A stretch of DNA of 4,325 nt, taken from IMG/VR virus record IMGVR_UViG_2537561716_000012, one strand, 5' to 3'. The position numbers were made by a program. Positions 1 to 3,000 of this stretch are shown piece by piece (within the stretch, counting starts at the first letter, position 1; every line of letters starts with the position of its first letter). The DNA comes from a virus (Duplodnaviria; Heunggongvirae; Uroviricota; Caudoviricetes).

Positions 1-3000
1 AAGGTTTTTACGTCAGATTCTTTTGGGATTGGCTTGCGTTTATTTCTGGAGCGTTTCGTTGGAAGGTATTTGCAGTTTTCGCAGATGATGTCGGTGATAC
101 TTCGTCGCTATCGCCTCATGCCGCCCTCCTGACGCCCTGCCCGATCGCCATCAATGCCGCTTTGGATACGGTAGTAAACATCCGTCGAGGACTGATGAAC
201 GGTCGCCAAATCAGCAACATTGAGCCTTTGCTGTTTCCCTTCTTCTCCAGCCCTGTCGATGGTTCGATAAAATTAATCCGTCCATCAGTGATGATGCGAA
301 CTTCGTCAACACTCTCCAGAGCCTTGCTGAACCATCCGACAGACATATCCTCTGGCACAAGCATCACTACCGTCTGTCGCTGTTGTATGCACTGCTCAGC
401 GGCTTTTTCCACCCACGGCCTGATATTGCTGTACGGTGGGTTATTCCAGATTGCACCGTGGCTTATCCACTCAGAATTTAGCGCGTCGTCAGCCTCAGTT
501 AGCCAGTGAGCGCACAGAGCGTTTTTGTCGCTCGCAGCTGAATCCAGCCAGAATCCAAACTCAATATCCAGCGCATCAAAAAGCCAGAGCGGCGTTTGCC
601 AGCAGTCCTTGTCGTGTGCTGGCGTATTTGATTTGATAGTCATGCAGCCTTCCCTTTTCGTTGTGACCATTCATACTCTCGCCGGGAGTCATCACTCCAC
701 CGCACGTTGCGCTCTGAGCCGAACCAGAACATGATTTCGATAAGCTCAGTCATGCTGGCCTTTCGCATTTTGCTGGTACGCACGCCAAGCATGACAACGC
801 CACCGTCGATACCAGGCGCACTTCTTTGCTCCAGTTTTTTGGTCTTAAGCCACAGGGCAGTGAACAGGTCTTTCCAGTCTTCCGGCGCCAGCCGTTGACC
901 ATGCCATAGCACCTGACGCGAAACATCGTTCAGCATCGGCCACATGCGGTCATTCTGCGCTTTGCTGCGCTTGGGTTCTTTAACGTGGACTTCGTGGGGT
1001 GACTTGTCGTCGATGGGTAGTGAGAGAATGGCGTCTATGGCGTTATTTCTGATTGCTTCGTTGCGAAGCAGAAAGGTTTGCTTCATCTCCTGCTCTCCGG
1101 TTCCATTTTTCAGTAGCCGCAGCAACTGATGGTGCCCATGCCACCCTGGCTTCACAGAGGTCACATTCTGCATAGCCCCACACATCAATATTTATTCCGG
1201 CCTCAACCCACAGACGAGCATTACCGCCGCAAAACGGACATTCTTTTAGCTTTGGCTGGGTTAATGATAGGTCGCTCATGCTCACTCCTTCACTTAAAAT
1301 CCAGACTCCGGATAATTCTGTTGCGCTGAAACTCATTGTTGAGTTTGAACAACCGTCGAAGAACACGGTCACGCGGATAGCGTCGTGCGGCAGGTGAATG
1401 CTCATACAACTCATCAAGCGGCAAACTGGACGATGAACGATACCGATACCAACGCACCAACTCTTCACGAAAATTAGCCCTGACAAGCTCAGCTATCGTA
1501 CTCATTTCTTAAAACCTCCTCAAACGCATTCTGACGCATTTTTCATTCTCGCTGCTTATCGGCATACCTTGCACGTGCTTACCTCACCACAGAGCGATTG
1601 TGATGCCTTAAAAGCGATTTATTGAAGTGATATTTGCTTAATCGAAATTATTTTCTTTGATTCCTGCGGCCCTGATGGCTTTCATTACTGCAATTACCGT
1701 TTTGTCACGCCCATCCTCATAACCCATCGCATAAGCACCTTCTTCACCATCTTTCCAAAGGTCGTCATTCGATTCGGGCCAGTCGATATCCAGTTCAATA
1801 GCAGAGCGCGATGCCTGCCATATCACCCAGGCAAACTCTTTTAATTCATCGTCTCCCGTGAACTGGCTTTTGTCTTTTGACCACCAGTTTTCAAACTGTC
1901 GGTAGCTATCGTTCACTTCCCTCTCCCCCAAATAAAAAGGCCTGCGATTACCAGCAGGCCTTTTATTGACTCAGTGATGTAGATGGTCATACGTCAGCCC
2001 CTTGTGCATATCGTCTGCCACGCGCAGCAGGTGCATTTGATGCTGTGCAAATCTGTCTGGCTTCATCCTGGTCACATGCAACAAAGTGTCCGTTACAGAA
2101 CCGCTGGTAAACTGTACCAAGCGAGCCAAAACGGTTTTTCGTCACGATGATTTCAGCAAATGGCGCGGCGCTACTGTTCTCATCATATACCGCTTCCCGA
2201 TAGAGCATGATGATTGAGTCTGCGTCCTGTTCAATGCTTCCTGAATCACGCAAATCTGCGTTTGTCGGGCGTTTGTTTGGTCGCTTCTCAACATCGCGCG
2301 AAAGCTGACTCAGGGAGATAACCGGTGTTTTCAGGTCTTTCGCCATCGCCTTCAGGCTTCCGGAGATGTGAGCAATTGCGAGGTCGTTGCGGTCTGCTTT
2401 CGGCTTCTCAATCAGGCCAAGATAATCCGCCATGATGAGTGACAGGTTTGGATTTTCCTGCTTATGCCGTTCTGCGATTGAGCGTATTTCTTCGACCGAT
2501 AACCGCGAAGCATCGACTACCCATACATCCAAATCTGCAAGCTGACTCATGCCGTTAGCAACACGTGCCCAGCCCTCGTCATCCATCGATGCAGGATTTC
2601 GCAGTACGCTAACCGACATCCTCCCGGCGTTGGCAATGCTTCGCTCTGCAATCTGCAATGCGCTCATTTCCATTGAGAAAATCAATACCCCGCGCCGGAC
2701 GTCAGAACCAGGAATAACGCGGCTTGCCACACCTTCGGCAATCTTCAGCGCCAGTTCGGTTTTCCCCATACCAGGACGAGCGGCGATAATCACCAGGTCT
2801 TCTGCGTTCATCCCTCCAGTGATAGCGTCAAGCTCTTCGATTCCGGTCTTCAGGGTATCTGACTCTTCTCCGTTCCTCAGACGCCTGTCAAGCGTGTCAG
2901 TGTAGTCAGTGATGATTTCCCCTAACCGTACAGGTTTAACCTCGTCACGGGGCTTTCTGATGGCTGAAAGACGCTTTACAAGTTCATCCATCGCCTGACT

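Follow-up and report, generated by a model that had tools for sequence, protein, structure and literature searches.

What does a small, strongly acidic and tryptophan-rich phage protein do, and does its acidity mark it as a DNA mimic? The question is raised by an open reading frame (ORF) on the minus strand of a 4,325-nucleotide stretch of Caudoviricetes DNA, IMG/VR record IMGVR_UViG_2537561716_000012 (the window, by which we mean this stretch at its full length). The original prediction, made from the sequence alone, had placed the product outside any recognisable family and likened it to Ocr and ArdA, the established DNA mimics that inhibit restriction enzymes. We found that the ORF is a real gene under purifying selection, that it and its family are already catalogued, as a phage family annotated as hypothetical, and that its acidity resides in one exchangeable cassette and is not shared by the family at large; the start of the gene, the geometry of its translational coupling, the modular architecture of the protein and the localisation of its charge were likewise directly observed. 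As to function, we favour, with a probability of roughly one in three, a delayed-early, non-enzymatic, stoichiometric binder whose cassette would serve as a decoy on a basic or acidic-tail-binding surface, for counter-defence or host takeover.

The ORF exists where it had been placed, at 1638–1931, and a recount of its 97-aa translation from a TTG codon reproduced the composition given for it exactly (23 aspartate and glutamate residues, 12 lysine and arginine residues and 6 tryptophans, with a WW pair). The proposed computation of isoelectric point (pI) and charge gave 4.33 and about −11.5 for this reading, the earlier estimate of the charge having been about −11. Doubt had been expressed about the start, between the TTG at 1931, within the U-tract of a terminator, and a GTG at 1916 with a GGAG-type ribosome-binding site. 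As judged from annotations and sequence conservation, the true start is the GTG, which yields a 92-aa protein (coding sequence 1638..1916, minus strand; TAA stop at 1638–1640) with 21 acidic and 11 basic residues, a pI of 4.32 and a net charge of −10. This GTG is the start used in the database annotations of 933W (L0091) and Nil2 (ORF29). Homologues begin with M-[NDT]-[DE]-S, followed by x-x-Q-F-E, at the same position, and the homologous start codon is an ATG with an upstream GGAG/GAGG Shine–Dalgarno motif in 63 of 63 distinct IMG/VR relatives. The Shine–Dalgarno region for the GTG, GGAGAGGG, lies at 1919..1927 (minus strand) and is also the one used by the ninB ATG in P22. We rejected the TTG start, which sits in the terminator U-tract; upstream of the GTG/ATG position, coding sequence is conserved in none of the relatives. 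Acidity as such is not exceptional, as about 10% of the small proteins of P22 match it (pI of at most 4.4 in 4 of 32; net charge per residue of −0.10 or lower in 3 of 32). The richness in tryptophan is unusual, being reached by none of these 32 proteins. The sequence contains no cysteine, no histidine and no enzymatic or metal-binding motifs.

Selection on the ORF is evident from comparisons with its relatives. Over the cassette and the C terminus, the ratio of nonsynonymous to synonymous differences per site (pN/pS) was 0.05–0.20 against six relatives; against the copy in a Hafnia prophage, pS was 0.84 and pN 0.12, synonymous sites being close to saturation. Codon choice at the conserved motifs varies synonymously: Ser36 appears as TCT, TCA, TCG or AGC, the arginines as CGN or AGR. 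The ORF is unbroken and shares 99.6% identity with the copies in functional Shiga-toxin (Stx) phages, its counterparts being L0091 of 933W, H0101 of VT2-Sakai and ORF29 of Nil2. That the host prophage appears defective, with an insertion sequence (IS) interrupting gene O, would fit a spurious or decaying ORF devoid of function; this explanation is effectively refuted by the low pN/pS at near-saturated synonymous sites, by invariant residues with varied codons, by the intactness of the ORF and by a family of 688 clusters.

It is to this family that the protein belongs, and the claim that it has no recognisable one was wrong. The 97-aa reading matches PHROG 343 over residues 3–97 (E = 4.8e-29), and PF26207 (Phage_phiTE_015) is precomputed on all homologues, close and distant, including some that are 96–98% identical. 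Searches of Pfam, NCBIfam and PADLOC with the protein itself returned no functional-family match (0 families at E ≤ 0.1 for the PADLOC defence-protein models); the Pfam result was empty because PF26207 is newer than the copy of Pfam searched, and 85 family members produced only scattered single matches to that copy at E > 0.01. A hidden Markov model (HMM) of 85 relatives of the window protein recognised phiTE_015 from end to end (E = 6.2e-27). A profile search of 1.84 billion representative proteins recovered 688 clusters at 50% identity (E ≤ 0.001), and most of those among the matches listed are 80–110 aa long. Lambdoid phages of Escherichia, Salmonella, Shigella and Hafnia carry the family, as does Pseudomonas phage D3, and so do the virulent phages phiTE, Seszw and BASEL Bas79 and JG004-like phages; the family thus occurs in temperate and virulent phages alike. 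The gene is present in 602 of 5,426 complete E. coli genomes (about 11%), in up to four copies per genome. All database names of members are hypothetical or uncharacterised.

The window protein differs in nothing essential from the exemplars of PF26207 and PHROG 343, namely gp015 of the Pectobacterium phage phiTE and the 933W, VT2-Sakai and Nil2 proteins named above. It agrees with them in length, in its N- and C-terminal motifs and in genomic slot; its strongly acidic DIDWPE...DKT cassette is one of many types, and it carries two private substitutions, L53 and N89. A resemblance of the C-terminal motif to Ead/Ea22-like proteins, which we considered, proved unsupported, as the family HMM matches nothing in P22, the ea genes included. 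Some relatives (P0087, P0089, P0095, P0108, P0110, P0114, P0117 and P0121) have N-terminal extensions, which may be fused upstream small genes. One type is a zinc-ribbon-like CxxC...CxC module of about 32 aa, which accounts for the extra 32 positions in the PHROG 343 profile; the other reads WAIKHKSGR..FVTSDEF..NRR..GW, and P0108 has both.

We modelled the structure with AlphaFold2 from an alignment of 85 sequences (predicted local distance difference test (pLDDT) of 80.3 and predicted template modelling score of 0.57; a shallower alignment gave a pLDDT of 70.7). The model comprises a helix at residues 2–14, a second helix at 23–38, a strand at 41–43, a loop at 44–57, a long helix at 58–83 and a strand at 87–89. 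Family alignments and the model define residues 1–40 (1797..1916, minus strand) as a conserved N-terminal helical hairpin, with the motif S-x-R-Q-F-E-N-W-W in helix 1 and W-x-x-W-Q-A-S-R-x-A-I in helix 2; the connection between the two helices is hypervariable across the family. Residues 41–73 (1698..1796, minus strand) form the acidic and aromatic cassette, ELDIDWPESNDDLWKDGEEGAYAMGYEDGRDKT, which in the model takes in the short strand, the loop and the first half of helix 3. By hand count the cassette holds 12 of the 21 acidic residues and −9 of the total net charge of −10, and sliding charge windows agree. The remaining residues, 74–92 (1641..1697, minus strand; VIAVMKAIRAAGIKE..), constitute the conserved C-terminal end of helix 3 and a short strand, with the family consensus AIRAAGIKVKE.

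This architecture recurs throughout the family, whose members have about 80–110 aa, an N-terminal S-R-x-Q-F-E-x-W, a central W-x-x-W-Q-A-S-R-A-A-I-E and a C-terminal A-I-R-A-A-G-I-K-V-K. F8 is invariant, and M1, R5, E9, W33, S36, R37, G85 and K89 are each at least 90% conserved. Members have a median of four tryptophans, several of which occupy conserved sites in helices 1 and 2. The stretch from strand 1 to the conserved end of helix 3, by contrast with these parts, occurs as discrete types unrelated to one another, and the segments that take the place of the acidic cassette are in many cases just mildly acidic. Among the 61 carriers of the acidic type, the cassette has a median identity of 87%, whereas the N-terminal parts of the same proteins have a median identity of only 40%; the cassette is therefore an exchanged unit under strong constraint, and its conservation at the sequence level suggests a conserved target. 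The 146 family representatives analysed have a median net charge of −4 and a median pI of 5.05.

The interpretation of the protein as a DNA mimic of the Ocr or ArdA type gained no support from profiles, fold, charge density or family comparison. Neither the ocr nor the ArdA Pfam model matched the protein at E ≤ 0.1, although the ocr model (PF08684) recognised T7 Ocr, our positive control, at 1.3e-64, and alignment of the family profile to Ocr with hhalign gave a probability of 0.3%. Sequence searches of the PDB, with the single protein or with the family profile, found no match even at E ≤ 10. The structure prediction that had been suggested as a check gave an α-α-β-α-β arrangement, and in the fold search it matched none of the solved structures, DNA mimics included. 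A structure search of BFVD returned uncharacterised phage proteins only.

Composition and charge placement bear on the same point. A classical whole-protein mimic, which would imitate B-DNA and block type I or other restriction enzymes, is consistent with a pI of 4.3, with 21 acidic residues among 92, with early expression and with the neighbouring Lar-like and Dam anti-restriction genes. The size and composition of the protein also fall within the range of small DNA mimics such as Ugi and AcrIIA4. Ocr is likewise a small, acidic, early-expressed phage protein, and the gene studied here has an anti-restriction neighbourhood, but the two proteins share no sequence, profile or fold similarity. 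The charge density of Ocr is twice as high, at −0.24 per residue (34 acidic and 6 basic residues) compared with −0.11 (21 acidic and 11 basic). Moreover, the charge of the window protein is confined to a loop and half a helix instead of being spread over a rigid surface, its acidity is unconserved in the family, and it is shared by the tenth or so of small P22 proteins mentioned above. ArdA (PF07275), a DNA mimic of plasmids and transposons, is acidic too, and an anti-restriction role is plausible for both proteins, but no Pfam, PDB-sequence or fold match connects them. The restriction-alleviation protein Lar/Ral is encoded in the same delayed-early accessory block and may have a similar role; Lar is, however, a zinc-ribbon protein (PF14354, TIGR03655), whereas the acidic protein lacks cysteine and has no Lar match. 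We consider a classical mimic improbable.

We favour instead the decoy-bearing binder introduced above, and the form that it would take is as follows. The gene, one of the lambdoid nin region, would encode a small accessory protein that is cytoplasmic and non-enzymatic and binds its target stoichiometrically, with the conserved α-hairpin/β/α/β scaffold displaying an exchangeable middle segment that sets the target. The 33-residue acidic and aromatic cassette, with its net charge of −9, would dock as a decoy into a basic surface that normally binds nucleic acid or an acidic tail, on a protein conserved among Enterobacteriaceae. Its role would be counter-defence in early infection, or host takeover, alongside the Lar-like and Dam anti-restriction genes. 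That the protein acts by binding, that the cassette is a decoy, that the role is counter-defence and all that is said here of a target are points that we infer. They are suggested by a real, selected protein with no enzymatic motifs or functional-family match and a conserved scaffold into which different middle cassettes have been swapped; by the fixed place of the gene between the replication genes and ninB, in an accessory slot of variable content where it is shuffled with DUF7301 and Lar cassettes, and by tandem paralogues; by the Lar-family and Dam neighbours; and by an occurrence in temperate and virulent phages that is typical of portable accessory genes.

Several observations weigh against this reading. 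The confidence of the model over the cassette loop is just 64–76 pLDDT. Among the 146 representatives, 12% have a pI above 7, that is, non-acidic cassettes, and an acidic decoy therefore cannot be the mode of action of the whole family. Screens of the AntiDefenseFinder type leave the gene unflagged: a DefenseFinder anti-defence scan of the enterohaemorrhagic E. coli phages phi367 and phi345 reported only a methyltransferase, Ral and Gam (PMC12502783), and both phages carry the acidic gene at 99% identity. A search of the literature library for the family, the gene and its 933W and Sakai identifiers found nothing relevant, L0091 matching unrelated papers only. Gene neighbourhood counts for little here, since recombination and regulatory genes are also found in the nin region.

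A bolder form of the decoy reading, which we regard as speculative and rather doubtful, would make PF26207 a modular plug-in inhibitor scaffold, in which the helical hairpin and the C-terminal helix and strand present swappable middle cassettes, each directed at a different host protein. The Stx-phage cassette would then be a new and structurally unprecedented mimic of nucleic acid or of the tail of single-stranded DNA-binding protein (SSB), acting against an enterobacterial enzyme of DNA-targeting defence or repair. If this held, the family would be a sizeable class of phage counter-defence proteins that has so far gone unrecognised and that about 11% of complete E. coli genomes carry. If cassette swapping amounts to target switching, the family would also offer a compact natural inhibitor scaffold and a source of new anti-defence activities in the Shiga-toxin phages of clinical E. 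coli. For now, the gene is one more conserved hypothetical gene of the nin region; the useful outcomes are its corrected start, its family assignment, the tracing of its acidity to one exchangeable cassette and its coupling to the ninA/tR2 module described below.

We surveyed the genomic slot in 80 IMG/VR loci. The family gene lies downstream of replication genes in all of them, with ninB within about 1.1 kb downstream in 68. A DUF7301 homologue is immediately upstream of the family gene, not downstream of it, in 13 of the 80 loci, and the two genes travel as shuffled neighbours. Tandem family paralogues stand between the helicase gene and ninB in L029–L031, L060, L061 and L066; in L061 it is the second paralogue that carries the acidic cassette. 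In the window, the 3′ end of the acidic gene contains a relic of a ninB start, GATTAAGCAAATAT (1630..1643, minus strand; GATGAAGCAAATAT in relatives), which marks the left joint of a block formed by the DUF7301 and Lar-like genes. An intact copy of the ninB start, GATGAAGCAAAC, with the ninB ATG, is found at 1073–1085, and the end of the Lar-like gene holds an intact ATGAAGCAAAC and the tail EANLSASQRSNQK. The block and its intergenic DNA, at about 1085–1637, are flanked by a 12-nt direct repeat, GAT(T/G)AAGCAAA(T/C), from the ninB start region. In relatives that lack the block, the family gene continues through the tail EANIHASQRSNQK and overlaps ninB, and in L061 it likewise extends through the tail into ninB. 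The relic, the intact copy and the overlap in L061 together suggest that the DUF7301 and Lar-like block was inserted where the family gene meets ninB.

This slot raises another explanation, in which the protein would be a recombination or replication accessory working with the NinB/Orf mediator or with host SSB, its DIDWP and DDLW motifs, for example, imitating the acidic C-terminal tail of SSB. The gene is directly upstream of ninB in most loci and overlaps the ninB start in what seems to be the ancestral arrangement. Several cassette types share acidic-aromatic D-x-D-[FWY] motifs, and the Orf protein of lambda binds SSB. Adjacency to ninB is weak evidence, however, because lambdoid gene order is conserved whatever the function. 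Two inserted genes separate the acidic gene from ninB in the window, and the annotation of the 20 kb surrounding the phiTE member lists no NinB. The SSB tail, furthermore, requires a free C-terminal carboxylate, whereas the cassette motifs are internal. We rate an accessory role with NinB or SSB as unlikely.

What lies immediately upstream bears on the expression of the gene. The original prediction had made it the first gene after a terminator, and it is indeed the first substantial gene behind a strong hairpin, a tR2-type intrinsic terminator at 1930..1964 (minus strand) with the stem AAAAGGCCUGC/GCAGGCCUUUU (1935–1964) and a U-rich tail. The hairpin has an 11-bp stem and an 8-nt loop (−20.9 kcal/mol, z −2.8); it is annotated as tR2 in Nil2, and the equivalent P22 module is also annotated as a terminator. 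A scan with a terminator consensus found 0 sites at 1930–1964 despite the strength of the hairpin, probably because the stem, in its A/U extension, takes up the U-tract. With an A-tract ahead of the stem and a U-tract behind it, the terminator could work in both directions.

Through the hairpin runs a ninA-like mini-ORF of 25 codons (1913..1990, minus strand), whose ATG overlaps the stop codon of the helicase gene (ATGA) and whose own stop codon overlaps the GTG of the acidic gene (GTGA). Being chained translationally to the replication genes and placed behind tR2, the acidic gene is therefore a delayed-early lytic gene. In the decoy reading it would be expressed in lytic growth only, when the pR transcript passes tR2 under N antitermination, and ribosomes would reach the weak GTG by coupling from the mini-ORF. 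We rejected the identity of the acidic gene with NinA of P22 and Nil2. It shares the genomic position of NinA, right after the replication genes at tR2, but NinA is a terminator-spanning ORF of 25–26 codons, here the separate mini-ORF at 1913–1990, and the acidic gene is the unrelated gene that follows.

The mini-ORF belongs to a conserved, hydrophobic type of 25–26 codons, MTIYITE..GLLVIAGLFIWGRGK, which is also found at 34673–34753 in P22 and between ren and L0091 in 933W. The same module of ninA, terminator and Shine–Dalgarno sequence stands before ninB in P22 and after ren in 933W. The coupling mini-ORF, terminator and Shine–Dalgarno sequence make up a portable unit with different downstream genes in different phages; the mini-ORF overlaps the preceding stop codon as ATGA and the following start codon as GTGA or ATGA. 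In one genome, a 116-aa protein (P0001) joins the ninA mini-ORF in frame to the family gene, MTIYITELITGLLVIAGLLFGEREVNDSY..., presumably as the result of a frameshift in the T-run of the terminator or an annotation artefact.

The same arrangement bears on whether the gene is a moron, expressed from the prophage and conferring superinfection exclusion or defence on the lysogen. It occupies a variable slot in which morons accumulate, and it is common in E. coli, as its presence in 602 of 5,426 complete genomes attests. A promoter scan, on the other hand, found no σ70-like promoter on the coding strand in the interval from the terminator to the gene, which lies just behind the terminator inside the repressed pR operon and is chained translationally to the replication genes. 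The protein has no PADLOC match, and family members occur in strictly virulent phages. We judge this explanation very improbable.

Read on the minus strand, the window as a whole is the early-right region of a lambdoid prophage of the HK97/Nil2 type, resembling Stx phages, from E. coli strains of the O157 type. In that direction it encodes an O-like replication protein (3360–4034) and a DnaB-like helicase (1987–3363), followed by tR2 and the acidic ORF, which is succeeded by the DUF7301 gene (1290–1505; 71 aa, very basic with a pI of 10.8, PHROG 1785), the Lar-family gene (1043–1279; TIGR03655, 7.6e-17), ninB (640–1083) and a Dam-type methyltransferase gene (116–643). The Lar-like gene had been described as adjoining the acidic gene; a Lar-family gene is indeed nearby, but it is two genes downstream, with the DUF7301 gene between them. 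Collinearity with Nil2 extends over bases 1–4036 at 99.5% identity and ends exactly at 4036. From 4037 to the window end at 4325, an IS629/IS1203 element (IS3 family) replaces about 145 nt at the 5′ end of the O-like gene, and because it interrupts gene O the prophage is probably replication-defective. A scan of the window against Rfam found no RNA family.

Two features of the Lar-family gene deserve mention. Its product gives a sub-threshold match to the NCBIfam model of the RalR type I toxin (E = 1.6e-6; 28.7 bits against a cut-off of 113). The ORF listed at 1043–1486 includes a long upstream extension from a TTG codon, and the Lar match begins near the ATG at 1279.

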